Shown here in pieces: positions 1 to 21,981 of a stretch of DNA of 32,000 bases (the first letter of the stretch is position 1; the number at the start of each line of letters is the position of its first letter). This DNA comes from Candidatus Nanoarchaeia archaeon (GTDB lineage: Archaea; Nanobdellota; Nanobdellia; Woesearchaeales; JANQNC01), in NCBI GenBank assembly GCA_028279745.1, contig JANQNC010000001.1:600001-632000 (forward strand), read 5' to 3'. The translations under genes and the position numbers were made by a program. The notes beneath the pieces are model-generated. The model was not told where the DNA came from, did no database searches, and worked only from the letters and a program-made list of their open reading frames with translations.

Positions 1-458
1 TTTCAGTGATCGGACGAGCAATAGGAACTGTGTTGATTCCAGTTGTATCTGAAATGTGGGCAAAAAAGAAATACAAAGAAGTCAATAGAGGAGTAAAACT
101 AATCAATTATTATCTATCATTACTACTTGCACCTTTAGTTATAATATTCTTCATATTCTCAAAACAGATAATCACAATACTCTTTGGTGAACAGTTTGCA
201 ATAGGACATATAGCTTTCAGAATACTCATAATAGGGGCGGCATTCCATTCACTGTTCTCAATTAATGGGAACTCAATAACCGCAAGAGGTAAGCCTCAAA
301 CCGTGACAAAAATAGTTTTATTTTTAGCAGTTGTTAATATAATAGTAAACTTACTGCTAATTCCAAAATACGGGATGGTGGGTGCAGCAATAGCAACCTC
401 TTTGAGTTATTTCTTGGGATTCTTACTGATAATAAGAAAATCAAGGTCACCTAAGTAA
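1..458 (+). CDS. 3' end of a Wzx/MOP-superfamily oligosaccharide or polysaccharide flippase (partial; starts upstream of the window)
   Basis: The frame is open from the window edge to the stop at 456-458. The product is all hydrophobic helices, and the C-terminal segment GMVGAAIATSLSYFLGFLL is typical of the polysaccharide-biosynthesis (Wzx/MurJ-like) C-terminal domain. It sits next to a glycosyltransferase operon. The GTG at position 6 in the ORF track is probably not the real start. Confidence 0.6.
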   Translation, partial: SVIGRAIGTVLIPVVSEMWAKKKYKEVNRGVKLINYYLSLLLAPLVIIFFIFSKQIITILFGEQFAIGHIAFRILIIGAAFHSLFSINGNSITARGKPQTVTKIVLFLAVVNIIVNLLLIPKYGMVGAAIATSLSYFLGFLLIIRKSRSPK

Positions 459-1514
459 AGGTAAGAACCTTTTTAGGAAAGTTTCTGGGCTGTGTTCTTT
501 AAGGACTTTTGTTTTAGCATTCTTGCCAAAAAAAATCAGTTTCTTGAAATTTATCTTTCCGCCAGATATGAATGACTCAATCGAGTTCGATAAAGACTCT
601 AGACTGTCTTTTTTGAATATAAACCCGTCTTTTCCGTGAGAGGTGTAACACTTAGTCCCATTATCAGAAGATAATATTACAGGAATCCCATAAGACATCG
701 CTTCTAGATTTGAATAAGAAGCAGGTTCGTTATTGCTTGGAACAATGTAAAGATCTGATTTTAGGAATAGTTTTTCCATATCTTTGTGAGCCACATTTTT
801 ATGGATCTTTATATCTATTTTTGCGGAGTTGATCTTCTTCATGACCGCATCATAATAAGCGTTTTTGTAAGAAAGAGCGCCTGCAATAGAGAGATTAAAC
901 TTTATCTTTGGGTATTTTTCTTGAAGCTGGTTTAATGCTTCAATCAGCAAGATATGATTTTTTCTCTTTTCGTTAAACTTCCCAATGCATAAAATGTTAA
1001 GTGTGCTGCTTGTTTTGAAACTTTTAGTTTTTGAGGATTCAATAGGGCAAGGTATGTAGTGAACATTCTTTAATTCCTTCTTTCCAGTTATGTAACCTTC
1101 TTTCACACTTGCATAGATCATTGTTCTTTTTGGGATAAGCAAGAATTTTACAATAGGGTAAGCTAGTTGATATAATGGGTTCTTAAGGTGCTTAATCTTC
1201 TGAACGTTAACAATGAACTTTAGGCCTTTTAATTTGCAAAAAAACATAGCTAGAAAAGTTGACGGCACATTTATCTCTTTGAGTACAACAAAATCGTAAT
1301 TCTTCTTGATATTCTTCCACAACTGGAAAATGTTTGGAAAAAATAGGCTGTTAATTATTCTTGATTTGATCTTTATAGACTTAAATTCAGCTGGAACCTT
1401 TCTTTGTCCTATAGATAGAAGAGTTACGTCTGCAACTTTGGACAATGATTTCAAAGTATGGTAAACATTAGGGTGGTAGTTCTGGATAAAAAGTATCTTC
1501 TTTTTGGAATTCAT
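447..1514 (-). CDS. GT4-family (GT-B fold) glycosyltransferase
   Basis: C-terminal donor-binding signature EPASYSNLEAMSYGIPVILSSDNG (E-x7-E type). Length is 355 aa. The ATG at 1514 overlaps the upstream TGA (ATGA). Confidence 0.75.
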   Translation of the reverse strand: MNSKKKILFIQNYHPNVYHTLKSLSKVADVTLLSIGQRKVPAEFKSIKIKSRIINSLFFPNIFQLWKNIKKNYDFVVLKEINVPSTFLAMFFCKLKGLKFIVNVQKIKHLKNPLYQLAYPIVKFLLIPKRTMIYASVKEGYITGKKELKNVHYIPCPIESSKTKSFKTSSTLNILCIGKFNEKRKNHILLIEALNQLQEKYPKIKFNLSIAGALSYKNAYYDAVMKKINSAKIDIKIHKNVAHKDMEKLFLKSDLYIVPSNNEPASYSNLEAMSYGIPVILSSDNGTKCYTSHGKDGFIFKKDSLESLSNSIESFISGGKINFKKLIFFGKNAKTKVLKEHSPETFLKRFLPLLR

Positions 1515-2128
1515 TTTTTCTTAAGTATGAAAAGCAGTTGAGGAGCATAAACTTTTCTAAAGAATGAAAAGAAACGTTCAACAAAGTACTGCCAGTTTGT
1601 TTTAGGATCAAAGTAGTAATATACTGAAAGAATTTTTAGGTCAAATCTCTCAGCCAACTGTTTTAAAGTGTAATAATCATAATAACAAGAATGGTTCTTA
1701 TTTGGTATAATTTTACCGAATAAAAGATTTCTTAAAACAGTTCTGATTCCAAAAGCGTTAGGTGTAGATAATGCAATCTTCCCATCTGTTTTTAGGTGTT
1801 TTTTGATGTTTTCAATAAAAAGGCCGGCATTTGAAACATGCTCAATGAGTTCACCTGCAACGATAACATCAAATTTCTTGTTTAGCTTAAAGGTTTCAGC
1901 GTTGCCTGCAACTATATTATAGCCTTTACTGCTTAGTTTCTTTACCTCTTCCTTAGCCATATCAACACCCGTGACTTCTTTTGCGACTGATTGGATCAAT
2001 TTATGCAACCAGAAAGGATTTTTTTCAGTAAGGGCTTTATGATCAACACAACCAATATCTAGAACTACCTTATTCCTGCAAAGAGCCATTATCTTTTCTT
2101 CTCTTCTTCTTATTATTGTTGGTTTCAC
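1511..2128 (-). CDS. Class I SAM-dependent methyltransferase (possible glycan-modifying enzyme, AglP-like role)
   Basis: Motif I-like VLDIGCVDH and post-motif DVIVAGELIEHV. The GTG start at 2128 overlaps the upstream TGA (GTGA). An internal ATG at 2089 is an alternative start. Confidence 0.7.
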   Translation of the reverse strand: MKPTIIRRREEKIMALCRNKVVLDIGCVDHKALTEKNPFWLHKLIQSVAKEVTGVDMAKEEVKKLSSKGYNIVAGNAETFKLNKKFDVIVAGELIEHVSNAGLFIENIKKHLKTDGKIALSTPNAFGIRTVLRNLLFGKIIPNKNHSCYYDYYTLKQLAERFDLKILSVYYYFDPKTNWQYFVERFFSFFRKVYAPQLLFILKKK

Positions 2129-3231
2129 TTTCTACAAATATCCACATATAACTTTTCAGTTTTTGAGACTGTGTGTTTTATATCAAAATATTCTTTAACT
2201 CGCTTATAAGCATTGTTGCCTAGTTTAGATGCAAGCTTCTTGTTTTTTATAAGTCTTATTATTGAATTAGCGGTTTTTTTAGGGGAACTTACTGGGACAA
2301 GCGATGCCTCCTTCCCGTTTCTTGCGACTTCAGCATTTTCAGGAATGTCGGTTGTAATTATTGCTTTTTTCATGGCCATCGCTTCAATCAGACTATTGGA
2401 TTGGCCTTCTGTAAGTGTTGCGCTTATCCAAATATCAGATATGGAAAGAAGATTGGGAATGTCGCCTCTATAACCTAGGAATCTTACGTTCTTAACATTC
2501 AACCTTTTAACCAAACTCTTTATCTTTTTTGTTTCATCTTCATAATCTGTGCCCCCACCAACTACGAGGAAGTTTAAGTCTGTCTCTTTTTGAGCGATCT
2601 TCACAGATTTGATCAATGTTGGATAATCTTTTTCTTTTCTTAAGTTTGCAACAGAGATTAGGGTAGGGATGTTTTTCAGATTAAGTGCTCGTTTAATGGT
2701 TGAAGCTTTCTTTGTTGGTTTTAACTTTCGTAAATTAACACCATTATAGATCAATTTTATCTTATTCTCCTTAATCCCATACCCCTTAACAAATCTCTTA
2801 AGATTTAGTGAGTTCACAGTATGAACATCTACCAGGTGCTGAGTGAACCCATCAACAAGCCTCTGGAAGGCATTAACTAACTTACCTCTGACTGATGAGA
2901 TTATTTTGCAATTCGTTCCTTTAGCGGCAAGTCTGCCCACAATATTAGCATGATACATGAAACAGTGCAGTATGTCTGGTTTTTTTGTTGTGATTAATCT
3001 TCTTAACTTCTTGATTGCTTTGAAGAACTCAAAAGGAGTTTTAACATTAAGGGTGTAGACAGATATGCCTTTATTTTTCAGATTTGATGCAATCTTGCCA
3101 CCTTTAATCATGCTACAGACAGAAACATCAAACTTTTTCTTGTCTATACTGTTAACTAATTTCTCAAGCATGCGTTCTGCTCCACCTACTTGGAGGTCGG
3201 TTATGAAATAAAGAATTTTTTTCTTTTTCAT
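2125..3231 (-). CDS. GT4-family glycosyltransferase
   Basis: N-terminal ILYFITDLQVGGAERML and C-terminal EGQSNSLIEAMAMKKAIITTD signatures of GT-B/GT4 enzymes. ATGA overlap at 3228-3231. Confidence 0.8.
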   Translation of the reverse strand: MKKKKILYFITDLQVGGAERMLEKLVNSIDKKKFDVSVCSMIKGGKIASNLKNKGISVYTLNVKTPFEFFKAIKKLRRLITTKKPDILHCFMYHANIVGRLAAKGTNCKIISSVRGKLVNAFQRLVDGFTQHLVDVHTVNSLNLKRFVKGYGIKENKIKLIYNGVNLRKLKPTKKASTIKRALNLKNIPTLISVANLRKEKDYPTLIKSVKIAQKETDLNFLVVGGGTDYEDETKKIKSLVKRLNVKNVRFLGYRGDIPNLLSISDIWISATLTEGQSNSLIEAMAMKKAIITTDIPENAEVARNGKEASLVPVSSPKKTANSIIRLIKNKKLASKLGNNAYKRVKEYFDIKHTVSKTEKLYVDICRK

Positions 3232-4343
3232 TTTAGTAAGCCCATAAATTTCTTAACACTTAGCTCCCAGTCAAAATCTTTCACACTTTTCTTTATGCAT
3301 GTTGATAAGGATTTTCTTAGTTTTTGATCTTTGAGTAAATTTATTATGTTTTTTCTTAGTGTTGAAGAGTTATTGGGAGTTATGAGGATCCCTTTTCCTT
3401 TGTCGCTTAATATTTCTCTTGTTCCACCCACATTAGTAGCAATTATGGGCTTGCCAACAGCTGCTGCTTCTAAAACAGATGTTGGAAGGCCTTCTGCGTA
3501 AGAAGGGTTGACAAATATATCTGTAATGTTTAACACGTTGATTATCTCTTTTTCTGTATTTTCACCCATGAAAAGAATTTCTTTTCTGTTTTTTGCAAGC
3601 TGTTTTAGTTTGGATTCATAAGGACCTTTTCCAACTATCAAGATTTTTATGTTATCTATATTTTCTGTTGCTTTTAGCAAGTCTTGGACACCTTTTGCAT
3701 GAATCAATCTTCCTATAAATGTTATTATCTTTGTATCTTTTGGGATCTTTAGCTTGGTTTTTAAGTTAGTCTTCACTTTCCTGAATTTTTTAGTGTCAAC
3801 ACCATTATGTATCAGTTTTATGCTCTTAGCACCCATCTTTTTAGAAAAATTACAGCACGCTTTGCTTATACCTACAACTTTCCAAGCGTTGCTTATCACT
3901 TTCTTTCCGAGAGTCATATCGTATAAAAATGAGAATAGCTCTACTAGCTTATTAGGATGGTTTACAAATGAATTCCCATGTTCTATATGGATGAGCTTCA
4001 AATTATGCTTTTTAGCAAACTTCAAACCCATATTAGAAGTGTAGAAAAACCTTGTTTGGGTGATGACGCAGTTGTATTTGTTGTTTTCTATCTCTTTCAT
4101 AAGTTTTTGGAACTGGTTGTTCTTTTTTGGAACTGCATAAGTGCCTTTCAGAATATACTTTGAAGGCAATCTGTAAATGTTTATGCCTTTGTACTTTTCT
4201 TTTGATTTCTTCTTTTCAGTGTTTAAGGTTACAACATCTATTTTTATCTTTTTTTTAGCAAGTCTTGTTGTTAATTCAATAAGGTACTTCTCTAGACCTC
4301 CCTGAAAAGGGTAAAAATGCGTAGAAAAAAACAAAAGTCTCAT
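3228..4343 (-). CDS. GT4-family glycosyltransferase
   Basis: EGLPTSVLEAAAVGKPIIATNVGGTREI (E-x7-E donor-binding motif). N-terminal FFSTHFYPFQGGLEKY. ATGA overlap at 4340-4343. Confidence 0.8.
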   Translation of the reverse strand: MRLLFFSTHFYPFQGGLEKYLIELTTRLAKKKIKIDVVTLNTEKKKSKEKYKGINIYRLPSKYILKGTYAVPKKNNQFQKLMKEIENNKYNCVITQTRFFYTSNMGLKFAKKHNLKLIHIEHGNSFVNHPNKLVELFSFLYDMTLGKKVISNAWKVVGISKACCNFSKKMGAKSIKLIHNGVDTKKFRKVKTNLKTKLKIPKDTKIITFIGRLIHAKGVQDLLKATENIDNIKILIVGKGPYESKLKQLAKNRKEILFMGENTEKEIINVLNITDIFVNPSYAEGLPTSVLEAAAVGKPIIATNVGGTREILSDKGKGILITPNNSSTLRKNIINLLKDQKLRKSLSTCIKKSVKDFDWELSVKKFMGLLK

Positions 4344-4663
4344 TTTTTCAGTGCAACTTTCCTGACAATCGTCTCTACTCGCTTCTCTGTCTTTCTCACA
4401 CTCTTATAAAGGTAGAATATTATTATCGTAAAGAACATAAATCCACCAATAACAAAAAAGTCAACTGTTCTTTGGATCTCAAGACTTTCCATAATGCCAT
4501 AAACCACTTTTGGGAAGATGGTTATGAACAAGAAAAAAAGCCAAACCAATATCCACAATGAAAAATCTTTAACATCGTAGTCTTTCTTTCTAAAACTTAG
4601 AAAAGTCAAATAGATCATAATCAACCCAAACAAAATACCTAATATCTGAACTCCTGGAATCAT
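4340..4663 (-). CDS. Small polytopic membrane protein associated with GT2 genes (DUF2304-like from memory)
   Basis: About 107 aa with three or four hydrophobic helices. I place the start at ATG 4663 because it forms an ATGA overlap with the upstream TGA (4660-4662), like the other junctions in this operon. The track used a TTG at 4681. Confidence 0.45.
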   Translation of the reverse strand: MIPGVQILGILFGLIMIYLTFLSFRKKDYDVKDFSLWILVWLFFLFITIFPKVVYGIMESLEIQRTVDFFVIGGFMFFTIIIFYLYKSVRKTEKRVETIVRKVALKK

Positions 4664-5313
4664 TTTACAAACCTCCACCAAATCATACTAAACACTATCT
4701 TTATACCATCAAAAATTGTTGTTCCTTTATACTTATCAGAATATATCGTTTTTATAAATATTTCTTTACATTTAAGCTTATTCTTGCCTGCCAAAGCAAT
4801 CATTTCAGACTCAACACTATAGCTGCTTGAAGTCCATCTAATCTTCTTATATGCATCAGCAGTCATAGCACGATATCCTGACTGAGTATCATGAATGTTA
4901 ATGTTAAATAAAATCTTGCTCATAAAACTGATAAACCAGTTTCCGAATTTGTAAACTATTGGCATGGTTCTTGTTCTTCTCCTGGATCCGAAGATGATAT
5001 CTCTCCCTTTAAGCACGTTCAAAAATCTTGGAATTTCGTGAGGGTCGTGCTGATTATCAGCATCTAGAAAAACTATGTTGTCTGCTTTATTCCTCACTGC
5101 AAATTCTGCACCAGTTTTCATCGCTGCACCTTTACCCAAGTTGATAATGTGCCTGATAACTTTAACCTTCTCTTCTTTAGCCACTTTGGAAGTGTTGTCT
5201 TGACTTCCATCATCCACCACAACGATGTCTTTTGAATATTTCTTAACTTTCTTAATTACCTTAGTGATGTTTTTTTCCTCATTATGGGCAGGAATTATTA
5301 CAAAAGTTTTCAT
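4660..5313 (-). CDS. GT2-family glycosyltransferase, dolichyl-phosphate hexose synthase-like (AglD/AglJ/DPM1-type)
   Basis: [23 protein letters not shown] and LDADNQHDP (DxD) motifs of GT-A/GT2 enzymes. Preferred start is ATG 5313 (MKTFVII) rather than the track's TTG at 5325. Confidence 0.75.
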   Translation of the reverse strand: MKTFVIIPAHNEEKNITKVIKKVKKYSKDIVVVDDGSQDNTSKVAKEEKVKVIRHIINLGKGAAMKTGAEFAVRNKADNIVFLDADNQHDPHEIPRFLNVLKGRDIIFGSRRRTRTMPIVYKFGNWFISFMSKILFNINIHDTQSGYRAMTADAYKKIRWTSSSYSVESEMIALAGKNKLKCKEIFIKTIYSDKYKGTTIFDGIKIVFSMIWWRFVK

Positions 5314-5314
5314 C

Positions 5315-6010
5315 TTAATCAACAAATCTGTACTTTACCAGATACCAAATAGCTAAAACACCATCTGTCCATCTGATCTTTTTACCTTCTTTAAAATCTC
5401 TGCACTTGTAATAAACAGGGACTTCTATGATCTTGTGATGTTTCTTTAGAAGTTTAGCCGTCACTTCGGGCTCAAAATCAAATCGTTTAGATCTTAGTTT
5501 TATGTTTTTGATTATTTCAGATTTGAAAACTTTATAACAAGTCTCCATATCAGTTATCTTACTGAAAAATAAAAGATTTGTTATGAAAGTAAGAAGCCTG
5601 TTGCCAAGATAATATGAGAAATACCTTGCACTGTGTTTTTTCATAAACCTGGAACCAAAAACAACATCAGTTTTTCCGTCAACAATAGGTTTCAGAAGTT
5701 TTGGGTATTCAAAAGGATCATATTCAAGATCTGCATCCTGGATAAGAACGATATCTCCTGTTGCTTCCTTAATTCCTCTTCGTAAAGCAGCACCTTTACC
5801 TTTGTTTTTTGGTTGAAGTATCAGTCTAGTGTAAAGTTTTCCCTTGTATGGCTTAAGAAGCTCCACAGTATTGTCTTGACTACCATCATCAACTATAACA
5901 ATCTCTTTTTTTAGTTTAAGTTTAGATAAGTCTACTTTGTTAACTGTTTTCAAGACTGTTAAAATGTGCTTCTCTTCATTATAGGTTGGAATTATTATGC
6001 TTAGTTTCAT
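5315..6010 (-). CDS. GT2-family glycosyltransferase, dolichyl-phosphate hexose synthase-like
   Basis: [24 protein letters not shown] and QDADLEYDP motifs. It is a paralog of the adjacent GT2. ATGA overlap at 6007-6010. Confidence 0.75.
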
Positions 6011-7779
6011 TTTTCGTATACTGTATAATCTGTGAAGTCTCTCTTTATAAATCCATAGCTTGATAATGCTTCATCTATCTTTGCAGGCGTTTCTATCTCT
6101 CTACCTTTATTTGCTATGAAAACAAATACTTTAGCTTGAGAAGATATTTCAACCAATCCAGGCAGATCATTAGCCAAGAAAGGATTAAGATATGCTCCAG
6201 GAATAAACCTAGAGTAAGTTCTTACCTTCTTAGGTTCAGATTCCTCTTCAAGAATGAAAGTATTAAACATAAACGAATCGGGACTGTACTGGAACTGAGG
6301 TCTTGAAGGATCAAACTTGATGTAACTTACTGAATACCTGTTTTCCTCAAGTTTGGCTTTCTTGTATTGTTTTAGTTCTGCTGCTGTGTTAAAAATAGGC
6401 ATGCTATCTTTATTTTCACCTTTCATCTTTGCAATTAAAGATTTTGTCAGAGAGATTGCTGCAATCTGAGGTTTTTCGTGAATAAAGTCTCCGCTATCAT
6501 AACAACATTCTAGATTAACAAGGAAAATAGGGCCTGCGGCAGTTGAAACATATTCAAATGCATCCCTGTTAATGTCTCCTTTTGCATGTTTGATCACAGA
6601 GGTAAAACCTATGTTAAGCAATAGCAAAAATATTGTGATTAATATAAAAAATATCATAAACAAACTCTTCAGATTAATCTTTTTACCAAGCCAAGAAAAG
6701 AAAATGTGCATTCCTTTAACCGTAAATAGGGCAACAAAAGGTATAACATGCATTATGTATCTTAGCTGTCTGTTTGAAATCAAGAAAGTTGAAAGTATAA
6801 TTATGGTTAGGACAAGGAAAACCATCTCTTTATTTTCTGATATGAAACTGTCTTTCTTCTTGAAGAACAGTATGAAAGGAATCAAAGCGAATAGTGCCAG
6901 GAAGAATGTTTCAAAAGTTAGCTGTATTGGGAAGTGGAAAAGCCAAGCAAGACCAGAACCTCTCCCTTCAGATACCCCCTGCCAAAGAAGCTGCTTGTAA
7001 GTCTCGAACTTGATAAGACTAAACCAGACCCAAGGCAAAGTGATTATGAAAGTAATTACTAATTGAATTATGAACTCTTTTATCAGCTTAAATGGTTGGT
7101 GTTTCCTAATGAATAAGAATATTGCATATGCTAAAATGAATGCAGCTGCAAAAATAATTGATTGATACCTTATTAGGAAGGCCAGTGCTAAGAATATCCC
7201 TCCGATGAATATTGAAATGCTTCCCAGGCTTACTTTTTTGTTGTTTATGTTGATTGCAATCCTTTTTGAGCCTTTAATAAATGTGAAATAAAACCACCCC
7301 AAGAAGATGTAACTTACTGATGTATCAACCATAGAATCTCTGTTGAATAAGAAGATGTAAGGAATCAAACTGCATAGGATGACTGTGCAGTAAGCTAGAA
7401 GTTTATTGTTGAAAACTTTTTTTGATATAAGATAAAGGAATATTGAACCTATAACGAAAAAGAACATCGAAGGCAGTTTTGAAGCGTATTCATTGGGGCC
7501 TGCTATAAGGAAGAAAAAAGATTGTGCTATTGCGTGTAAAGGAGGATCATGTAATACATAAAAACCTATAGCTTGCTTTTCATTATATGCTTCCATAAAA
7601 GATTCAACACCCATAAAATTACCTTGGAGTATGTTTGAAAAATACTTATAGAAGAAAACACCTTGGTTTGCGTGTCTTGACTGATCATAACCAAGATTAG
7701 AACTTATATTAATATGAAAAAGACCCACAAAAATAACTAAAATAAAAAATAAAACTAAAAATTCTTTTTTAATCTTCAT
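6007..7779 (-). CDS. GT-C fold polytopic membrane glycosyltransferase (ArnT/PMT/AglS-like, Dol-P-sugar dependent) with a C-terminal soluble domain
   Basis: 590 aa. About a dozen hydrophobic helices are followed by a soluble domain of roughly 190 aa. It lies immediately downstream of aglB and upstream of two Dol-P-sugar-synthase-like GT2 genes. The start ATG shares one nt with the aglB stop (TAATG). Confidence 0.55.
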
Positions 7780-10700
7780 TACCTTTTACCCTCGACCAAA
7801 ATCAGGTGATATCCGAATTGAGTCTTGACTGGCTGTGAAATTTCTCCCACCTCTAAGTTAAATGCTGCCTGTTCAAAAGGAGCAACCATCATACCTTTAC
7901 CGAACCAACCAAGGTCTCCTCCTCTCACTGATGAAGGCCCTTCAGAATATTCTGTTGCAAGTTCTGCAAAATTCTCTTCAGTTGCATTTTCTCTTATCTC
8001 GTTGATAAGGCTTAATGCTTCCTCTTCAGTTCGGTTGTCTAAGTTGATAAGTATGTGTCTTGCTTTTATCTCATTCTTTAACACTTCGTTATATGCTGTG
8101 CCGTCCCACTTAACCTTGTAGATGTAGATTCCTCGTGCTTTATGGAACAGTTGGAAATATTTAGAGAATCTGCCTTCAAAGAAGTAAAGGTGTGTGAAAA
8201 CTGACTCAGTCAGAGCAGGATCAGACACAAGAACTCTTTCGTTTTCCATATCGAATAGAACATCATAAGGAATTCCTGAATCGTTGTACTCTTCTTTAAG
8301 AATTCCTTCTTCAAAGAACATCGTTCCATTCTCCGCAGACACGCCATTAAACCCTATTTTAGCAAAACCTGCAGGTCTTAAAGAAGAACCGCCAACTACT
8401 GCGCCAGTATCTGAGTTTTGAGTAACTAGGTTGAATGTAGCAGACTCATTGATTATAGAGACTGAGTCAAGAACCAAATTATTAACTCCTTGTCTTCCAA
8501 GGCCAATAGATAATCTGCAATCGTAACCTTCTTGGGTCTGTGAACAACTTTTCCATCCCCCACTTATGTAAGAAGGCCAAGGACTTATCCACTGATCTGC
8601 ATTAGTATTTTTTATGTCAAAGTAAACTTTATTTGCGGTATTCTCATCTAACCCATATCTGTCTTTCAAAAGCTGTATGCCTTCACCAACTTTTAATTTT
8701 CTTACTTGGTTGTGCATCTCTGCTTTTGTGAAATTCCATGAACCAAAGTGCGCCCAAACACCTGACTTACCAATCATATCGCTTGAAACAATATAGTAAT
8801 TTTCCCAAGGCTCGCAATGTGTACTTTCGATTATAGATGAGGTTTGTTGTGATGTGAAACCTTCATCAGATAACAGCTGTGCTGCTTCATCTTCATCTAG
8901 AAGAATCAGTTGGTTAAGTATTTCTATAGATTTTACAGTATCGTTAGCTGTGAAGCTTTCTAGTTTTACTGAAGCATTATTTTGGTCACAGTTAAGCATC
9001 CTAAGTATTGCTGCAGATTCTTCTTCTGAATTAGTCAGTAATGATTTACCAACCCAATGAATCCTTTTTCCTTGGTCACCACCATCGAAAGTTACTGGTC
9101 GTTCAGCAATTGCTTTAAACCAATGACCAAAGTCCCACCAGCTTGTTATAATTGCATTGTCAACAGTTGAATCTTCCTTGATCGTTATTAAAGAACTGTA
9201 CCAACCATCATTCATACTTGGTGTTTCTGAAACTGCAACTTGATATCCTCTAACTGTAGGGAATAACACAATGAAGAAAATTATTATTACAATCAAAGAG
9301 GTCATAACCCACGAAGGCATGTCAAGTTCTTTTTTGGTCCATCTTCTAAGCGGTTCGTATATTGTTCCAATAAGAACGCCTATAGCTAAAGCGAACCCAG
9401 GAACTAAAATTGCACTAAACCTTATACTTTTGATAGCAGCATAAGTTCCTGAAACAAACCAGACTGCAAGTAAAATTGCACTAACCATGTAAAAACTCCA
9501 AAGTTTGTCTTTCTTTACAAGTTTTAGGATTGCAACAGTGAACAAAGCTACAACTCCCCCAATAGCTACAAAGAATAATAAGCCTCCCATAGAGTTCATA
9601 ACACCTGATATGCTTGAAGGATTAAGCTCTGCAACTGTCGTTAAAACGTTAGGCCATAAATTAACTTCAGCAACTGCCTTAAGATTTATGAACCATAAAG
9701 GTTTTCCTAATGCGCCAACAACACTTGTGAACCCTTCAGAGAATTTTCTTCCAGATACTAAGAAGATAAGTGAACTGAATATTGCAGTACTTAGGAATAT
9801 TGTGATCAGTCCTGATAAAGGTGTTGTTATTGAAGATAGTGATTTCTTAATGTGTTTTCTGTTCTTGATCAGTTGGATAACTAACATGGCTCCTGCAGCA
9901 GTCAGTAGGAAAACAAAGTTATACCACCAACCACTCCATAAAGAGTTGTGTAAAGCTATAATAAATCCTGAACCTGCAAACAGAGCTATCTTTTTCTTAA
10001 GATCTTTTGAAGTGTAAGCTTCTAAGAACAGCCAGATTGCCGTTACAGGAAGCAAGAAGTGATAAGCGTCAGTGTCTGCAAAACCTGCTGTAGTTCTAGT
10101 CATCAATGCAGGATGGACTGCTGCCAAAGTTGCTGAAATGAACCCTCCAACATTGCCTGCAATCTTTCTTCCCAAAAAGAAAAGAGGGATAACCCCTAAA
10201 GTACAGATCAATAACGGAGATAGGAATGCTGCCTGCATAACGGTGTAGTCTTTGTTGAATATACTCATTATTCGATATATCCAAGATTCAAATAGAGGGT
10301 GGAAGTTACCTTCTTGTTCAACCTGCCATCTTCCTTTTTTTAGGATGTCATAACTTTTTCCGTCAATCTCTATCTCTCCAATGTGGCCATTGTTAACATA
10401 GTTTAAAGCGTGTTTGTACCAAAGATAGGGATCTATAGCTAAAAGATATGTGTTGCCATTTTCATCCTGATAGAAAGACCTTAAACTATTGGCTTGGTCT
10501 TTGATGGCTTGCTCTATAGCATCACCTTGTTCAGCCTTAACCTGCTCAAATTTTTTCAAAGCTTCAGCTCGTTTTTCTGCAGCAGGAAGGAAAGGGTATT
10601 GAGATTCAATCTCAGATTCATAGCTAGATATCAAATTATTATAAAGCTGATCTCTTACTCTATCTTCAAAACCAGACAGGTAAATTGGTTGAGCTCTTAG

Positions 10701-11048
10701 AAAGATACTCAAAAATATTGGGATAAGTATCAGTAATATTAAACCAGATTTTTTGAAAAAGCTGGTTACTCCTTTAAGGTCAACAGAAACTTCTTCATCT
10801 TCAGACTTAGTTTCAACTTTATGTTCTGGTTTTTGTTCTTTGTGCTTTTTAGATTTTCCTTTGAAAATTTTCTTGAAATCTATAGTGATCTCTTCCTCAT
10901 CAGAATCAACTTTTTTATCTTCTTTATGCTTTTCGCTAGCTTCAGAATGCTTTTTATGCTCTTCAGTACTCAATGTATGACACCCCCAATATTTAGCTAA
11001 AATATCGACACTGCATTTATAAAGGTTATGATTGGCATATATAAACAA
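7779..11048 (-). CDS. aglB: Archaeal oligosaccharyltransferase AglB (STT3 family) fused to a C-terminal parvulin-type peptidyl-prolyl isomerase domain
   Basis: WWDFGHW (WWDYG catalytic motif) is encoded at 9120-9140. The first-loop [10 protein letters not shown] and GFADTDAYH acidic motifs are present, with many TM helices. The last ~99 aa (about 7782-8078) read KARHILI...[21 protein letters not shown]...[22 protein letters not shown], a PpiC/parvulin rotamase signature. The start is uncertain: ATG 11048 leaves only 35 bp to the divergent gene, and a TTG near 10970 is possible. Confidence 0.85.
7782..8078 (-). other. Parvulin (PpiC-type) PPIase domain forming the C-terminus of AglB
   Basis: See the aglB entry. 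The domain is in frame and contiguous with the STT3 C-terminal domain, with no stop between them. Confidence 0.8.
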
Positions 11049-15831: not shown

Positions 15832-17241
15832 CTATTTCTTAAACACTGCAAAGTATTCAAAAACACTTGAAGTGTTGTATAATAATTCTGAGCTGTCTGA
15901 AAGACGATTGAACTCTTCTCTTTTCATCACTTCACATTCTTCATCCACACAAGGGAAAGTGGAGCTGGAGAAAACAAAAAGATTATAGGAACTAGATTCG
16001 TTAAGGAACAGGTCTACGCTTGTAGGCAGATCAAAATATCTCCCATAAAACTTTTGATCTGTGCAAGGCACAACAATGGCAGTTGTTGAGAAAAGAGAAT
16101 ACTCTTCATCGTAACTGCTGAAAAAACTGCAAAGGTTTGTGTGAGCAGTATCCATCTTTCCAAGGAAACCATACCCTAAAATAAATGAGTTAACCAGTAT
16201 AAATACAACTACTGCGAAGACCAGCAGGTTGCTTATCCACTTAGACTTCCTTTTTATGAAAAACATGAGCTCATCCAAAGAGTGAGCAACCATTATCGTA
16301 ATGAAAGGAAGGAACAATAAACCATACCTAAACTCTTTATGAGACAGCCAAGAAAAGTAGACTGTCAAAAATATTGCCGCAGTGACAAACAAATCAAAAG
16401 AAAAATCTTCGTGGAGCTTATTTTTGAAATAAAAGAAAACAAAAGCGATAAGAAGAATAAAAATCCAGTTATTAAGGAAAAACTGAACAAAGTAATAATA
16501 AAACGGCTGGGAATAGATTGCAATATTGTACCTGGTTATGTCTGCGTTAGCTATTATAAACGGCCTTATCATTGAGTCAAAGAAGTTTGCAGTCACATCT
16601 CTGTAAAAGAAAATATTGAAAATGAAAAATAGTGAAGCAGGAATTGAGTAAAAGATTATGAATTTTATTATCTTTCTTATCTTAGCTACTTTGAAGATCA
16701 TGAAAATTAACAAAGGTATCAACATCAAACCTGACGGAAACCTAATCATAAAAGCCAATCCTGCAAACAAGCCACACAATCCATACTTTTCTTCCTTAAA
16801 GAAGTAAATCGACGTAAGTAAAAGAAAAACTGCAGGTATCCCAGTAAGAAGCCTATGAGAAAAAGCAAAGAATAGAGGGAATGAAGCCAACAGTAAAACA
16901 GACCAGATTGCCGTATTTTTGTTAAAAAACTTCTTTGATAACATATAAGTCATCGATAATGCACCAATCGCAAATGTAAGAGCTATCATTCTTCCAAATA
17001 AAACTATGGGAATATTTAGTTTCCAACCAACACCCAACAGCAGAGGGAATAGTATAGGCCTCATCTCAGAATAAAAACCCGTCTGACCTAAAGAGTATAT
17101 GAATTTAGCAATACCTATGTATTCATATTCATCGAAAAATAAAGAGTTGTAGGTTGTAAGAAGGATAATTTTTGCAGTAAGAAAAACAGCTAAAATAGCT
17201 ACAAAAATCCAGTTTTCCTTGAACCAATTATTCTTCTTCAT
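15832..17241 (-). CDS. GT-C fold polytopic membrane glycosyltransferase (PMT_2/GT22/GT39/GT83-like)
   Basis: 469 aa with more than ten hydrophobic helices. The first-loop acidic motif FFDEYEYIGIAKF is characteristic of Dol-P/undecaprenyl-P-sugar-dependent GT-C enzymes. It is the last gene of the 21981-15832 operon. Confidence 0.6.
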   Translation of the reverse strand: MKKNNWFKENWIFVAILAVFLTAKIILLTTYNSLFFDEYEYIGIAKFIYSLGQTGFYSEMRPILFPLLLGVGWKLNIPIVLFGRMIALTFAIGALSMTYMLSKKFFNKNTAIWSVLLLASFPLFFAFSHRLLTGIPAVFLLLTSIYFFKEEKYGLCGLFAGLAFMIRFPSGLMLIPLLIFMIFKVAKIRKIIKFIIFYSIPASLFFIFNIFFYRDVTANFFDSMIRPFIIANADITRYNIAIYSQPFYYYFVQFFLNNWIFILLIAFVFFYFKNKLHEDFSFDLFVTAAIFLTVYFSWLSHKEFRYGLLFLPFITIMVAHSLDELMFFIKRKSKWISNLLVFAVVVFILVNSFILGYGFLGKMDTAHTNLCSFFSSYDEEYSLFSTTAIVVPCTDQKFYGRYFDLPTSVDLFLNESSSYNLFVFSSSTFPCVDEECEVMKREEFNRLSDSSELLYNTSSVFEYFAVFKK

Positions 17242-17947
17242 TTTCTACTTCACAAAAATCAGGCTTTTCAACATAATCATGACAGATTATATTAGCAAAA
17301 TTTTTCTTGCTTATCACGCCTTGATAAACTTTATCATTAATCACAAGAGACGGCACAGAAGTTATGTTATATCTTGCTTTCAAGACCAATAAAGATCTTT
17401 CCTCTTCTTCATTGTTTAAATCGAGTGGGAAGATAAGCAACTGCTTATCCAACTGTTTCTTGTAAAAAGTCAGAATAGTCCCTTGAATATTACACTCAGT
17501 GCATTTATCATCAAAGAAGTAAAGCACAGTAACTATATCCAAACCACAATCTTTCTTAGCCTGCTCAGCGAACAACCAATATCTTAAATTATCCAACGTG
17601 TACTGTCTTGATAAAAGATCAAACTTGTCTTTATTAAAATCAGACTCCTCGTTATATGCTTCGATATCTGCCAAACTCTCACTCAAATCTTTAATTATAT
17701 TTTCAAGTGTTGACTCAAGAACTATACAAGCTTCTGCACTGCTATTAAGAGTGTTCATAAAAAGGTACTGGAACTGCATGCTATCATAATCAAGATTCTG
17801 CATCTTGTTCTGGTTTTCTATGGATCTTACACGCTCGTTATCAACAACCAACCCAACTGAAAGACCCAACGCAAAAACTAACGAAGTGATAAAAAAAGCC
17901 ACAATATACTTCTTATTGCTTCTTGCTCTAAATGAATTCTTTACCAT
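17228..17947 (-). CDS. Membrane-anchored thioredoxin-fold protein with a CxxC motif (putative extracytoplasmic thiol-disulfide oxidoreductase)
   Basis: N-terminal TM anchor (YIVAFFITSLVFALGLSVGLVV). VTVLYFFDDKCTECNIQG contains CTEC, and a downstream ITSVPSLVI matches the cis-Pro loop of a thioredoxin fold. Confidence 0.55.
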   Translation of the reverse strand: MVKNSFRARSNKKYIVAFFITSLVFALGLSVGLVVDNERVRSIENQNKMQNLDYDSMQFQYLFMNTLNSSAEACIVLESTLENIIKDLSESLADIEAYNEESDFNKDKFDLLSRQYTLDNLRYWLFAEQAKKDCGLDIVTVLYFFDDKCTECNIQGTILTFYKKQLDKQLLIFPLDLNNEEEERSLLVLKARYNITSVPSLVINDKVYQGVISKKNFANIICHDYVEKPDFCEVENEEE

Positions 17948-19188
17948 TTCTGTTTAACCCCCAACACCAACTCAAACAATGAGATAAAGCATATGAAACT
18001 TATAAATATATTGTAAAAAAACAGATAAGCTAATAAGCTGAAAGAACCGTGCTTAAATAGCTTCTCCTCTGCATTCTTGTGAGAGAATAAAAGCATAGCG
18101 ACCACCAAAAGGAATGCAAAATAAAGGATCACTATCGCGCCAAAACGAATATCTAAAATGTTAAATGAAAAAGACAAAGTAGACATGAAATGGAATATGT
18201 TAAAATTCAGTGCGGCAAGATTTGAGAACAGATGATACAGTGGTTTGAACGTAAAATATGCTGTGAAGAAAATAACTGAAAATGTAAGCATAAATGAGAA
18301 AACATTAAATGGTAGCTGAAGAAGACCAAAATCACCATATTTCTTATTAAGAACCAACCCCCTATTCTTTAGGACAGTCAAAAATCCTCCCTTAAACCAT
18401 CTTCTTCTCTGCTTAATAAGACCTTTAGGTGTGTCAGGAGAAACAGTGTAAACATATCCATTAAAACATTGCTTTATCTGATAATGTTTGCTTTGAAGCC
18501 TGTAAACAATCTCTTGGTCCTCAGTCAAGCTTTTAGTGTCAAAACCGCCAACTTTCTGTATAACATCTGTCCTATAGATACTGAAAGGGCCAGGAGCAAC
18601 AAACAACATATTAAGCCTGGACATCATCCTAGCAAAAAACATAACTGTGATGTACTCAAGCCTTTGCATCTTCTGAATAAGTGTTTTTGGTTTAAAGACC
18701 TTCATTGCAGGAGTTATGATCGCAACTTTCTTATTGTTTAACTGTTGGTATAAAGAGATCTGCTTCTTTAATGTTAAAGGATCAACAAAAGAATCCGCAT
18801 CCAAATTTGCAAAAAACTCGGTTTTAAGAGTGCTAAGAACTTTATTAATAGATGCAGCTTTACCCATATTCTCATGATGGATAACCTTCATGTTTCTGTC
18901 TTTGTATTTTGTTGCTGCTTTTTTCATAACAGCTAAAGTGTTATCTGAGCTGCCATCATCAACAGCGTACACTGAAAGTTTTTCTTTTGGGTATTCTAGC
19001 TTCATAATCGAGTCTATAGTCTTTCGTATTGTAGAACCCTCGTTAAATGCAGGGACAATAACTGCGACTGTGGGGAAATACTTTAACTTTGTAGATATTT
19101 TCTCCTTCTTGAAAATGTGCTCTTTATCTAAGAAGGTCAGCATCCAAAATACAAAAAAGTAAAGCGAAACAAACTGCAAACTCCACAT
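17941..19188 (-). CDS. Processive membrane GT2 beta-glycosyltransferase/polysaccharide synthase (NodC/IcaA/PgaC/chitin- or hyaluronan-synthase-like)
   Basis: VAVIVPAFNEGSTI, VDDGSSDNT, LDADS, TEDQE and QRRRW (QxxRW) motifs, with flanking TM helices on both sides of the catalytic domain. Confidence 0.8.
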   Translation of the reverse strand: MWSLQFVSLYFFVFWMLTFLDKEHIFKKEKISTKLKYFPTVAVIVPAFNEGSTIRKTIDSIMKLEYPKEKLSVYAVDDGSSDNTLAVMKKAATKYKDRNMKVIHHENMGKAASINKVLSTLKTEFFANLDADSFVDPLTLKKQISLYQQLNNKKVAIITPAMKVFKPKTLIQKMQRLEYITVMFFARMMSRLNMLFVAPGPFSIYRTDVIQKVGGFDTKSLTEDQEIVYRLQSKHYQIKQCFNGYVYTVSPDTPKGLIKQRRRWFKGGFLTVLKNRGLVLNKKYGDFGLLQLPFNVFSFMLTFSVIFFTAYFTFKPLYHLFSNLAALNFNIFHFMSTLSFSFNILDIRFGAIVILYFAFLLVVAMLLFSHKNAEEKLFKHGSFSLLAYLFFYNIFISFICFISLFELVLGVKQKW

Positions 19189-19207: not shown

Positions 19208-20533
19208 TTAATTTGAATTCACCCCCCTAACTGCCCAGATCTCATTTTTACTGTCAGAGTAAGCAAGCTTAAACTTGTCACTCTTTTTCAATAAAAATAA
19301 AAGCCCTTCTTCATCTCTACTCCAGATAAGACCTTGCTTCATATCTTCAGTTATCCAGATATACTTTATGCTATTATCTTTTAGAATGTCTAAAGTCTGG
19401 TCTAAGTTTCTATTACTGAACATATTGCTTGAAACCGACTCCATCTTGTTGTTATCATCTGAAAAAGGTTTATTGGATGTATGATATGAAATCCAGAACC
19501 CATAGCTGTGGTGAGTCAAGATTGTGTTATTATCTGAGTTCTTGTTTAGCCAATCCAGTGATTCTAGGGCTTCTTTTGATGGTTCAGAAAAGGAGGTTCT
19601 GTGTATGTAAGAAAGTGATGAAAAAAGCAAACCAAAAATAACTGCAAGCATAGTCAAAGATTTAATCAAGTCTACAATATACTTTCTTTTCATTATTGAA
19701 GAGAACGCATAAGTAGAAAAGACGATTATGAAAATGTTAACAAATATAAAAACCCAGCTTGCAAAAAATAAAGCTGTGAGTGCAAGAATAAGCAAACAAA
19801 CATACGCAGGGTATAACTTAAGCTTGTGTTTACTTGCGATAAAAATACCTATTATGAACAACAATACAGTAAATATGCTGAACCCCAACCAAGAACCTAG
19901 GTCAGTTATCACTTCTGAAAGTATCAGTGAAAATGAAGACAGGTTATTTGTTGAGGGGATTGTGAAAGATTTAACAAGTGATGCAACAATCATGAAGATT
20001 ATCGAAGGAATTAAAATCTTTGAAAGCTTTCTATTGTAAAAAATAAGTGAAATTAGACATATTAAAATTATCAGGGTTTCTAAAGTTCCAAATAACGAAG
20101 AGGTTATGAGCAATAAAACAGACATGATGTTTAGCAGTTTGTTTTTTGATTGCAGCAACAATGTAGAAAGTAAAAACAAGAATAAAAGCATAGAGTGCGG
20201 TGTTGGAAATACTACACAATAAATCAATGCAGGGGATATTGCGAAAAATAAAGATGCAAGTAGTGAAAACTTAACATTTGCCTTGAACTTGATGAGTAAA
20301 CGGTAAAATATTATAACTGATAAGAATGTGAATATGAACGATAAGATGAAGGGGTTGATGAGTTGTGTTAAGAAAATGAAGGGGTTGTTAATATTGTAAA
20401 TGAGATGATAATAAGGATCTGAACCAGGGAACGACCCTTTAAAGATAATCGTTCTAATCATAACAGGGAATAACAAGATTATGAGTGAGATGGGTGTTAG
20501 TGCAAGTAATGCTTTTGAATTAGTCCACTTCAT
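19208..20533 (-). CDS. STT3/AglB-like GT-C membrane protein with a degenerate WWDYG motif (paralog A)
   Basis: The first-loop GSDPYYHLIYNI matches the AglB DPYYH motif. The C-terminal EALESLDWLNKNSDNNTILTHHSYGFWISYHTSNKP aligns with the AglB segment [19 protein letters not shown], but reads HHSYG where AglB has WWDFG. ATG 20533 forms an ATGA overlap with the upstream stop. The track used GTG at 20542. Confidence 0.55.
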   Translation of the reverse strand: MKWTNSKALLALTPISLIILLFPVMIRTIIFKGSFPGSDPYYHLIYNINNPFIFLTQLINPFILSFIFTFLSVIIFYRLLIKFKANVKFSLLASLFFAISPALIYCVVFPTPHSMLLFLFLLSTLLLQSKNKLLNIMSVLLLITSSLFGTLETLIILICLISLIFYNRKLSKILIPSIIFMIVASLVKSFTIPSTNNLSSFSLILSEVITDLGSWLGFSIFTVLLFIIGIFIASKHKLKLYPAYVCLLILALTALFFASWVFIFVNIFIIVFSTYAFSSIMKRKYIVDLIKSLTMLAVIFGLLFSSLSYIHRTSFSEPSKEALESLDWLNKNSDNNTILTHHSYGFWISYHTSNKPFSDDNNKMESVSSNMFSNRNLDQTLDILKDNSIKYIWITEDMKQGLIWSRDEEGLLFLLKKSDKFKLAYSDSKNEIWAVRGVNSN

Positions 20534-21981
20534 CCATAACACCCCACTTCGTAAATTAACACATTCTTATTGTAAACTTTTTCAAAACATTCAGAGTTAA
20601 GGTAATCTGGAGGCGTATCTTCCAGATATATGTAATCCACATCGTACTTAGCCAATAAATCTAAAGCTATTGTTTGGAACTTAGCATTGTATACTGTGTT
20701 GACATCATCTAATCTTATTTCTGCATCAGGTATGTTTAAAAAATTAGTATCAATAACATTTTTTCTATCTGCAATTGACGTGATAAGATGGCCTTTATGC
20801 ACATCAGCCAGAACTGTTGTGTTTTCTTCTGTGTTTTCACTTATCCATTCTAGCGCTTCAATAGTATCATCAGAAACAGAACTCTTAATGTTAAGATCCG
20901 AATAAACAAAAGATGGAATAACTGAATTGAATACAAAAATTATGAATATCAATATAGCAAATAAAGGGATCCTATTTGAAAACTTAGTCTTTGCAACATA
21001 TTTGAAAATAAAATTAAGACAAGGGCTTAATAATACTACTAGCGTGACTCCTAAAAATACTGCACCCAGTTCTGGTGTGAGCAGTTTGAAAAATAAAAGA
21101 AGGAAAATAGTTATTGCTAAAGATGTAAAAATGTAAACAGGTCTGCTTTTTTCCACAAAAAAGTATCTATATACTGAGTAAACTCCGCAAACAAAAGGGA
21201 TAATACCAATAAGAAGCATCAACTCTATCACATTTGCTGATGTGAAATACTGATTCAGGAGTAATTCAGGAATGTTTCTCCAGATTATTGATGCTCCACT
21301 TGCAAGGAACGCATCCTTGAAGAAAATGATGTATGCCCAAACAGATATGAAAATGAAGAACAGTATCGATTCTAATCTTGCTTCCTCAATCTTGACATCT
21401 TCAACTTTCGCCAGTATAAGATATATCCCTAAAGCTAAAGCAAGAATAGATGCAACAGGACTTATTAGTGCTAAGATAAAACAACCTATAACAAAAAAAG
21501 TTGAGTGCTTATTTATTTCTAAAAGCAGATAGACAAGCAAGAAGAAAAAAGGGATTAAGAGTGAAAGGGTTGAAACTTTGTTAATTGTTTCGGTGAGGTA
21601 GATTGGGATAAAAATAGATACAAAAGATGTGAAAAGAGATATGTTTTTGCTGTTCGTAATCCTTTTTGATAAAAGAAAAATTACTAAGACTAAGCTTGAA
21701 GCCAGGATGTTTGGAATTATCTTTCCAACTAACGTTATCGGCAAGAAAAGATTAAAGATGGCTAACAAGTAGTGGAATATAGGTAGGAACGATAAAGTCC
21801 TTCCCCCATAGCTCAAAGGGTCATCGTACAATGGGATAAAGTTTTCTTTTATGTTTTCTACCTGTCTTAAGTTAAAGTAAGCTTCATCCCCTGTGAATGA
21901 AGGAGTTTGGAAAGCAAAAAATAACCTAAAAGACAGAGCTATAACGAAGAAAAGAATCAACCATTTATACTCGGATTTCAT
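20530..21981 (-). CDS. STT3/AglB-like GT-C membrane protein with a degenerate WWDYG motif (paralog B)
   Basis: The N-terminal FTGDEAYFNLRQVENIKENFIPLYDDPLSYGGRTLSFLPIFHYLLAIF follows the AglB first-loop pattern. The C-terminal IEALEWISENTEENTTVLADVHKGHLITSIADRKNVIDTNF aligns with the WWDYG region but reads DVHKG. The C-terminal domain is clearly homologous to paralog A (LLAKYDVDYIYLEDT versus ILKDNSIKYIWITEDM). Confidence 0.55.
   Translation of the reverse strand: MKSEYKWLILFFVIALSFRLFFAFQTPSFTGDEAYFNLRQVENIKENFIPLYDDPLSYGGRTLSFLPIFHYLLAIFNLFLPITLVGKIIPNILASSLVLVIFLLSKRITNSKNISLFTSFVSIFIPIYLTETINKVSTLSLLIPFFFLLVYLLLEINKHSTFFVIGCFILALISPVASILALALGIYLILAKVEDVKIEEARLESILFFIFISVWAYIIFFKDAFLASGASIIWRNIPELLLNQYFTSANVIELMLLIGIIPFVCGVYSVYRYFFVEKSRPVYIFTSLAITIFLLLFFKLLTPELGAVFLGVTLVVLLSPCLNFIFKYVAKTKFSNRIPLFAILIFIIFVFNSVIPSFVYSDLNIKSSVSDDTIEALEWISENTEENTTVLADVHKGHLITSIADRKNVIDTNFLNIPDAEIRLDDVNTVYNAKFQTIALDLLAKYDVDYIYLEDTPPDYLNSECFEKVYNKNVLIYEVGCYG

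Follow-up and report, generated by a model that had tools for sequence, protein, structure and literature searches.

The fusion gene and its product

The 32,000-nucleotide stretch analysed here (hereafter the window; contig JANQNC010000001.1 of assembly GCA_028279745.1, Candidatus Nanoarchaeia archaeon, positions 600,001 to 632,000) carries at 7779 to 11048 of its reverse strand one open reading frame (ORF) of 1089 amino acids, free of stops and frameshifts, in which an archaeal oligosaccharyltransferase (OST) of the AglB/STT3 type runs on into a parvulin peptidyl-prolyl isomerase (PPIase) domain. An earlier note on this DNA had described just such an uninterrupted passage, with WWDFGHW on the OST side and the parvulin at the very end; the open frame, the Pfam matches and an AlphaFold2 (AF2) model across the junction bear the description out, and the positions given for the motif and for the parvulin agree with those obtained here (residues 637-643, nucleotides 9120-9140, and nucleotides 7782-8081). 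Hidden Markov model searches brought four Pfam families above their cut-offs: STT3 (PF02516) at residues 183-568 (E 2.5e-42, 146.3 bits against a cut-off of 24.5), STT3-PglB_core at residues 634-732 (above the curated cut-off), Rotamase_3 (PF13616) at residues 990-1088 (E 2.6e-28, 99.3 bits against 22.5) and Rotamase (PF00639) at residues 998-1086 (E 1.3e-24, 87.4 bits against 21.7). That the fusion is real and its parvulin external we regard as very nearly certain. The features of the gene are given below, where invariance refers to an alignment of 106 relatives (A1), which was also the basis of the AF2 model.

7779..11048, reverse strand: full ORF of the AglB-parvulin fusion, 1089 codons plus the stop at 7779-7781
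10971..10973, reverse strand: TTG at codon 26, candidate true start, with a Shine-Dalgarno-like GGGGGTG at 10981-10987
10779..10973, reverse strand: N-terminal Lys/Glu/His-rich tail, predicted cytoplasmic and disordered, carrying a family repeat
9228..10778, reverse strand: GT-C transmembrane (TM) domain, residues 91-607, with TM1 at 91-118 and the last helix at ~579-607
10476..10691, reverse strand: helical hairpin of external loop 1, residues 120-191, clade-specific, with a conserved QYPxLP motif
10416..10433, reverse strand: D206-PYLWY in external loop 1, with the first catalytic acidic residue; D206 invariant
10068..10076, reverse strand: D325-T-D327 (DxD motif), invariant, aligned to D154-T-D156 of C. 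lari PglB
9627..9638, reverse strand: T471-V-A-E474 (TIXE motif) in external loop 5, residues invariant
9120..9140, reverse strand: W637-WDFGHW643 (WWDYG motif), invariant, aligned to WWDYG 457-461 of PglB
8766..8780, reverse strand: D757-M-I-G-K761 followed by S-G-V-W765, a hybrid motif of DK/MI type; D, M, K and W invariant
8106..9227, reverse strand: extracytoplasmic globular domain, residues 608-981, with four invariant Cys and six N-x-S/T sequons
8070..8105, reverse strand: linker, residues 982-993 (~14 residues), from the AF2 model
7782..8081, reverse strand: parvulin (PpiC-type) PPIase domain, residues 990-1089, from Pfam, AF2 and Foldseek

The oligosaccharyltransferase core

The first part of the protein has the catalytic equipment expected of an OST. 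The external-loop-5 motif of these enzymes is TIXE in archaea and eukarya and SVSE in bacteria; the TIXE-type motif found here sits in the loop that joins helices 436-454 and 490-511, and the preceding T470 is invariant too. R543, which aligns to PglB R375, is invariant in the 106 relatives, as are the four cysteines C687, C745, C835 and C844, and several prolines are nearly invariant across the core. The Ser/Thr pocket of OSTs is formed by a DK motif (DxxKxxxM/I) or an MI motif (MxxIxxxI/V/W); the spacing of D757, M758, K761 and W765 (D-M-x-x-K-x-x-x-W) matches neither of the canonical patterns exactly. A search of the PDB with the full single sequence returned parvulins only, and PglB and AglB were reached by profile and with a truncated query. 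Direct alignment to the crystal sequence of C. lari PglB (3rce) gave E 1.1e-7, the family profile reached PglB, human STT3A and A. fulgidus AglB at E 1e-17 to 1e-20, and Foldseek placed the body of the model on PglB (TMt 0.69), AglB and STT3 (E 1e-20 to 1e-13). The AglB/STT3 identity proposed in the earlier note is thus carried by Pfam, by the invariant catalytic motifs, by the profile and Foldseek matches and by the PglB alignment. Because the NCBIfam scores fall far below their cut-offs (72.9 against 450 for archaeo_STT3, 49.7 against 1300 for the PglB equivalog), we consider the protein an AglB of a distinct, uncharacterised clade. The gene product is most likely a functional single-subunit archaeal OST of this Woesearchaeales clade, with transfer of a lipid-linked glycan to Asn in N-x-S/T predicted; the glycosyltransferase cluster and the sequon-rich secreted proteins nearby (below) speak for it.

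Topology was judged from hydropathy, from DSSP of the model and from homology. The AF2 model (mean pLDDT 88.7, pTM 0.83) has residues 1-89 disordered, then the membrane domain and a globular alpha/beta domain that terminates in the conserved ...FTHLYFFEG...YIYKVKW, and it folds the strand-helix pattern of a parvulin at residues 994-1088. Hydropathy and the model give no hydrophobic segment after the last helix (which ends at ~599-607), and the globular domain has its counterpart by homology in the periplasmic domain of PglB; the parvulin, following on this extracytoplasmic domain, should therefore lie outside the cell, in agreement with the placement that the earlier note had drawn from OST topology. 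To our knowledge, the WWDYG domain is non-cytoplasmic in all solved OSTs and no membrane crossing follows it. All eight N-x-S/T sequons of the fusion protein fall within residues 608-1089, which speaks for the outside location, as do the four invariant cysteines and the VKOR-type thioredoxin domain that a relative carries at this junction (below).

The same note had singled out the N-terminal tail and an insert of ~90 residues before the DPYLWY loop. Both exist, the tail being disordered in the model and the insert forming a hairpin (helices H126-150 and H156-191, within the ~88-residue stretch from TM1 to D206), but as features specific to this gene they were rejected, since both occur throughout the family. 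The repeat of the tail ([DE][DE]E-I/V-x-I/V-D-F/L-x-K...FFKK, acidic and then basic, with two copies in the present protein) is present in one to four copies in 83 of 120 relatives (P0005, P0010, P0033 and others); that it contacts the ribosome, the translocon or the membrane is speculation.

The parvulin domain

By its sequence, the C-terminal domain classifies as a non-phospho-specific parvulin of the Par10/PrsA/NmPin type, which like Par10 and PrsA has no equivalent of the basic phosphate-binding loop of Pin1 (K63, R68, R69). Among solved structures, B. subtilis PrsA (4wo7, E 4.6e-19), NmPin (2m08) and CsPinA come nearest in sequence. Foldseek matched the tail of the model to PrsA, NmPin and Par14 (TMt 0.76-0.84, rmsd ~2.3 A), best of all to PrsA 6xd8 (46% identity, TMt 0.84, rmsd 2.3 A), with NmPin at 44% identity and TMt 0.76, so that both kinds of search lead to the extracellular PrsA foldases, to which the domain had been likened before, and to the archaeal NmPin. 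Its nearest unfused kin are PpiC/Par10-type parvulins of ~93 residues with 50-60% identity, some of them from Woesearchaeota, and no membrane protein of a different architecture turned up with the domain among the parvulin's closest relatives.

The active site is largely kept in the fusions, as judged from residue columns mapped with Pin1 and NmPin reference sequences. The two catalytic histidines (Pin1 H59 and H157) are present as H998 in 71 of 71 fused domains and as H1081 in 67 of 71, and the proline pocket (Pin1 L122, M130 and F134) as L1046 in 70, M1054 in 66 and F1058 in 69 of them. These residues suggest that this copy may have PPIase activity.

Recurrence of the fusion

The present gene is far from alone. 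Among its 120 best homologues, all of them Woesearchaeota/Nanoarchaeota proteins, a parvulin is fused in 39 and an FKBP_C domain in 13, and 68 are unfused. A scan of GTDB species genomes gave at least 551 relatives, the best 80 of which, from 80 different genomes, divide into 32 with parvulin, 6 with FKBP_C and 42 unfused. An exhaustive search gave 1,074 representatives (50% identity) at E<=1e-30; the best 150 of these, a set unbiased by the word index, comprise 19 with parvulin, 16 with FKBP_C and 115 with no fused domain. Within the set of 120 the parvulin always comes directly after a conserved terminal motif (...FTRLFFxxG...VWKVxW), through which all 68 unfused proteins are complete, and the linkers are short, with medians of 17 residues from the terminal motif to the first parvulin strand and of 10 for FKBP. 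The co-occurrence of Rotamase with archaeal AglB, whose spread the earlier note had suggested surveying, thus recurs in dozens of Woesearchaeota/Nanoarchaeota assemblies.

An assembly chimera or a gene-calling artefact that joined an AglB to a separate parvulin gene is scarcely conceivable under these circumstances. Apart from the general risk attached to metagenome assemblies nothing speaks for it, and it would have to account for the same junction in more than 70 independent proteins or assemblies, for the covariation of core and parvulin (Mantel test, below) and for the confidence of the AF2 model across the junction. Split pairs of an aglB and a separate PPIase gene were looked for within 6 kb across the 80 loci, and none was found. 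Because the fusion recurs across independent assemblies, the closed chromosome OY970338.1 included, we consider a chimera excluded. The only separate PPIase gene at most 6 kb from aglB in the 80 loci is a free FKBP-like ORF of 244 amino acids (L015, 4305-5036, reverse strand), which stands just upstream of a parvulin-fused aglB.

The novelty of the fusion needs to be divided. No publication describing an AglB-PPIase or AglB-thioredoxin fusion was found in the literature, and to this extent the claim of the earlier note, which knew of no characterised AglB of this kind, stands; the condition under which that note would have given up the novelty holds in part, since the fusion is common in metagenome-assembled genomes of uncultivated Woesearchaeota. 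Automatic annotation labels such proteins 'peptidylprolyl isomerase [Nanoarchaeota archaeon]' or 'STT3 domain-containing protein'. The present gene is one of many with an architecture that is widespread and uncharacterised; by itself it is ordinary within its clade, and the clade-wide pattern is the interesting part.

Many GTDB records with Woesearchaeota-type AglB loci (L001, L005, L006 and others) are titled 'uncultured Methanosarcinales archaeon', and a 3.4 kb contig with such an AglB (L042) stands under 'Candidatus Aminicenantes bacterium'. These foreign taxon titles are probably placeholder labels or the result of bin contamination.

Other folding catalysts at the same junction

Domain counts and alignment agree that FKBP_C occupies the same junction in relatives. 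Of the active-site residues of FKBP12, Y26, F36, D37 and Y82 are found in 19 of 19 FKBP-fused proteins, H87 and F99 in 18 of 19 and V55 and I56 in 16 of 19, and W59 is replaced by Phe. A third class of domain appears in the AglB relative P0350 (L081 268-3414, L082 157-3303), whose junction carries a VKOR-type thioredoxin-like domain, an extracytoplasmic type of domain. Pfam alone left this tail below threshold; we accept it on the strength of a match at E 5e-21 to the VKOR homologue of Synechococcus (3kp8/3kp9), in the thioredoxin-like domain of that protein. The active site in P0350, YGAxWCxHCQxQK, is intact (WCSHC), the identical protein is found on contigs from three independent sources (ENA, Logan and JGI), and its loci have the usual synteny (AglB > GT2 > ... 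> GT2 > DUF2304). The tail of P0362, considered as a 'degenerate parvulin', gave a weak match (E 0.08) and was not counted.

In the alignment the four states (stop, parvulin, FKBP and thioredoxin) diverge right after a common ...KV(K/D)W motif. Sequence comparison thus suggests that the AglB C-terminus of this clade is most likely a modular slot for external folding catalysts that are often gained, lost and swapped.

The evolution of the architectures was followed by neighbour-joining phylogeny with bootstraps and shuffles, in which the counts of gains and losses are approximate. On a tree built from 831 columns of the AglB core, without the fused domains, the three architectures require 26 parsimony changes (bootstraps 23-28) and shuffled labels 44 +/- 2.3, so the architecture is passed on by descent yet changes readily. 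The distances between parvulins rise with those between cores (Mantel r 0.36, p ~0.002), as would be expected of an old fusion that travelled with the core and was lost or replaced many times. At ~67% core identity, P0033 with its FKBP is equally close to P0007, which has a parvulin, and to the unfused P0055 and P0030. These relationships bear on the thought that the PPIase might act within its own polypeptide, aiding the folding or stability of AglB or working a prolyl switch in it, and not on clients. Although the short linker, the packed arrangement implied by the high pTM and the nearly invariant prolines of the core might be quoted in favour of such an intramolecular role, we hold it to be very improbable, given that relatives with cores 65-67% identical function with no fused domain and that the substitution of FKBP or thioredoxin for parvulin is hard to square with a specific internal prolyl switch.

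The surrounding genes

The gene begins with some ambiguity. The TTG at 11048, at which the maximal ORF starts, is probably not the true start, and judging from the sequence around it the in-frame TTG at 10973 is likelier; it is preceded by a TATA-like tttataaat as well as by the Shine-Dalgarno-like element listed above, and a start at 11048 would leave just 35 nucleotides to the divergent gene at 11084. The start at 10973 would probably give a protein of ~1064 amino acids.

Downstream, aglB heads a co-directional, tightly packed cluster with overlapping stops and starts:

447..7779, reverse strand: downstream cluster of a PMT_2-type GT-C, GT2, GT2, DUF2304, GT4, GT4, a methyltransferase and GT4

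We take this cluster as probably an N-glycan assembly operon headed by aglB. The order AglB > GT2 > DUF2304 (> GT4) is conserved, with GT2 in 66 and DUF2304 in 57 of 80 loci. The first gene of the cluster, the PMT_2-type GT-C at 6007-7779 (reverse strand), whose start overlaps the stop of aglB, has homologues in only 2 of 80 related loci and has the look of a gene inserted into the operon in this lineage.

On the other side of aglB, a gene at 17228-17947 (reverse strand) sits between a GT-C gene (15832-17241) and a GT2 gene (17941-19188), with overlapping stops and starts. Its product of 239 amino acids is held by a TM anchor at the N-terminus and ends, beyond a long helical stalk, in a thioredoxin fold whose C149-x-x-C152 is invariant. 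This copy stays below the Pfam threshold, and its family counts 37 Woesearchaeal members, some of which reach thioredoxin families; the AF2 model (pLDDT 82) matches thioredoxins in Foldseek at TMt 0.65-0.8. In 8 of the 80 loci a homologue is found no more than 6 kb from aglB. From its modelled fold this protein may be a free-standing external oxidoreductase that works alongside glycosylation.

Two genes at 19208-20542 and 20530-21981 (both reverse strand) encode multi-span membrane proteins of 444 and 483 amino acids with no Pfam match; a GSDPYYHL motif in the first resembles the catalytic motif of AglB external loop 1, and by their sequences the two products may be uncharacterised GT-C-like enzymes. 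Further on, two forward-strand genes encode signal-peptide proteins: one at 24426-26822, of 798 amino acids, with weak dockerin and DUF4082 matches and 23 N-x-S/T sequons (2.9 per 100 residues), and one at 26773-31998, which runs off the window, of at least 1742 amino acids, with no Pfam match and 62 sequons (3.6 per 100 residues). Sequon density in cytosolic neighbours is 0-1.2 per 100 residues. Their sequon content suggests that the two are likely heavily glycosylated surface proteins, and they are plausible candidates for clients of AglB. An Rfam scan of the whole window gave no matches, hence no rRNA or tRNA, and the taxonomic placement in this analysis comes from the homologues.

A proposed external foldase at the site of N-glycosylation

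N-glycosylation needs unfolded or flexible segments and so competes with folding, and we know of no coupling of OST to folding factors in prokaryotes. We propose, as a reading that the sequences make reasonably probable though by no means assured, that the fused parvulin is a built-in external foldase or chaperone for surface glycoproteins at the N-glycosylation site. The outward C-terminal globular domain of AglB would be extended via the short linker by the parvulin, which would thereby be held on the outer face of the cytoplasmic membrane near the peptide-binding region of the OST. In this position it might bind newly translocated, still unfolded surface proteins and isomerise their prolyl bonds while N-glycosylation takes place. 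PrsA does such work in Firmicutes from its lipid anchor, and NmPin in Nitrosopumilus by way of a lysine patch; here covalent fusion with AglB would be the anchor. The proteins so served, and a kinetic tie to glycosylation, are likewise part of the proposal. The presence of FKBP and thioredoxin-like domains at the same junction in relatives strengthens the proposal.

Several observations weigh against it. The fusion is dispensable, with most close relatives lacking it and with frequent loss and swapping. The position of Pin1 C113 and NmPin D42 is taken by G1037 in the present copy, with E1036 adjacent; of the 71 fused domains, 38 have Asp there, 26 have Gly and 7 have Cys, and the Gly makes the catalytic efficiency of this copy uncertain. 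A few fused parvulins are without a catalytic His, among them that of L041 on OY970338.1. Its degenerate active site suggests a non-catalytic role in some lineages. For the one eukaryotic parallel that has been documented structurally, FKBP11 at the OST-A translocon, an adaptor function and not that of an isomerase has been argued by the authors, the catalytic site being buried (PMC12804085).

The L041 locus lies on a closed Woesearchaeota chromosome of 1.84 Mb, and in its parvulin GYH has given way to ...SYGYEIV... and GGDLGWFG to CSPGWFGRG.

Let us assume, then, that isomerase chemistry is secondary or even absent, and that the domain is a holdase or regulator that keeps unfolded segments glycosylation-competent or gates the OST active site, much as the thioredoxin subunits Ost3/6/TUSC3/MagT1 or FKBP11-CCDC134 would at the eukaryotic OST. 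PrsA, whose essential function in B. subtilis is independent of its PPIase activity, would be a precedent, and FKBP11 as an adaptor perhaps another; the Gly at the Cys/Asp position here and in other fused domains, and a second His replaced by Glu in 3 of 71, point the same way, as would the parvulin-like tail of P0362 if its weak match were admitted. We nevertheless consider a non-catalytic role of this kind quite unlikely for the family, as almost every fused parvulin has both histidines and the Leu/Met/Phe pocket, the FKBP fusions keep their active-site set and the thioredoxin fusion retains its CxxC. From this conservation across the fusions it would seem that selection has acted on catalysis or, at the least, to preserve the substrate groove.

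A different question is whether AglB matters to the parvulin at all. The fused domains are markedly acidic, with a mean net charge of -6.1 compared to -1.2 in those free parvulins that are closest to them (p ~1e-9), so they lack a basic membrane patch like that of NmPin. A covalent tether could replace such a patch, and a general foldase of the secretome might have taken AglB merely as a membrane anchor of convenience, with no mechanistic tie to glycosylation. The small genomes of DPANN archaea tend to economise, and frequent loss of the fusion is what would be expected of a non-essential convenience. Such opportunistic anchoring is harder to reconcile with the arrival of three unrelated families of folding catalyst at one and the same junction of AglB, with the absence of any other membrane architecture among the closest relatives of the parvulin, and with short, uniform linkers, which speak for a fixed geometry as opposed to a loose tether; on balance we think it unlikely. 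Because three unrelated folding catalysts meet at one junction, the fused foldase that we propose would seem to have a specific link to glycosylation and not to be placed there by a random choice of anchor.

If one is willing to go further, these proteins might be single-polypeptide 'glycosylate-and-fold' machines in which the C-terminus is a dedicated docking slot and the fused catalyst tunes the choice of sequon or the speed of later folding. We offer this extension tentatively, with rather more doubt than belief. If it holds, the long-debated competition between folding and N-glycosylation would become testable in one recombinant protein. Irrespective of this extension, three unrelated classes of folding catalyst fused to an OST are 'Rosetta-stone' evidence for a link between glycosylation and folding outside archaeal cells. 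The fusions supply single-chain constructs, and the natural variants with, without or with a swapped domain at ~67% core identity allow tests of what a prolyl isomerase or an oxidoreductase near the OST does to site occupancy and folding. They also point to how genome-reduced DPANN archaea, whose surfaces mediate attachment to the host, mature heavily glycosylated surface proteins.

Comparison with known systems

With the characterised AglB, PglB and STT3 enzymes (A. fulgidus AglB-L, 3WAJ/5GMY/7E9S; C. lari PglB, 3RCE/5OGL) the present protein shares the GT-C domain followed by an extracytoplasmic domain, the catalytic motifs, the Arg aligned to PglB R375 and a place at the head of a glycosyltransferase cluster. 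It differs from them in having the C-terminal PPIase, the loop-1 hairpin of ~70 residues and the cytoplasmic N-tail with its repeat.

PrsA of Bacillus, Listeria and Staphylococcus is likewise a membrane-tethered parvulin on the trans side that serves secreted proteins. It differs in being a lipoprotein dimer with the parvulin inserted in an N/C chaperone domain, whereas the present protein has neither a lipobox nor an NC domain, its anchor being the OST itself. The NCBIfam PrsA models align to residues 988-1088 only, at 65-68 bits compared to cut-offs of 343-361, and the fusion protein would be PrsA-like in function but is not a member of the PrsA family.

A precedent comes from NmPin, an archaeal parvulin that is active and is reported to sit beneath the S-layer on the outer face of the membrane, where S-layer proteins are its proposed clients (PMC4922055). 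NmPin and CsPinA are, like the fused domain, archaeal non-phospho-specific parvulins. NmPin (Nitrosopumilus) differs as a free protein of 91 residues that relies on a lysine patch and has Asp where the present protein has Gly1037, whereas the fused domains are acidic and covalently tethered. PpiD of E. coli offers a parvulin-fold module at the membrane where secreted chains emerge from SecYEG, and resembles the fusion in holding such a module at the membrane beside emerging chains; unlike the fusion it has its own N-terminal TM anchor and an inactive parvulin domain, and its partner is the translocon and not an OST. It is also mentioned in PMC4922055.

The eukaryotic OST, with Ost3/Ost6/TUSC3/MagT1 and with FKBP11 at the OST-A translocon (PDB 9n9j), is alike in placing a folding domain beside STT3 on the lumenal or external side. 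These factors are subunits distinct from STT3, each with a TM anchor of its own, whereas the archaeal FKBP and thioredoxin versions are covalent fusions. Ost3, Ost6, TUSC3 and MagT1 are thioredoxin-like subunits that manage the competition between folding and glycosylation, a task in which translocon-bound factors such as FKBP11 have recently been shown to share. We draw this parallel as an analogy, with no evolutionary continuity of the association implied. On the tentative 'glycosylate-and-fold' reading, the Woesearchaeal AglB fusions would be a minimal prokaryotic counterpart, probably reached by convergence, of the eukaryotic OST equipped with Ost3/6 and FKBP11.

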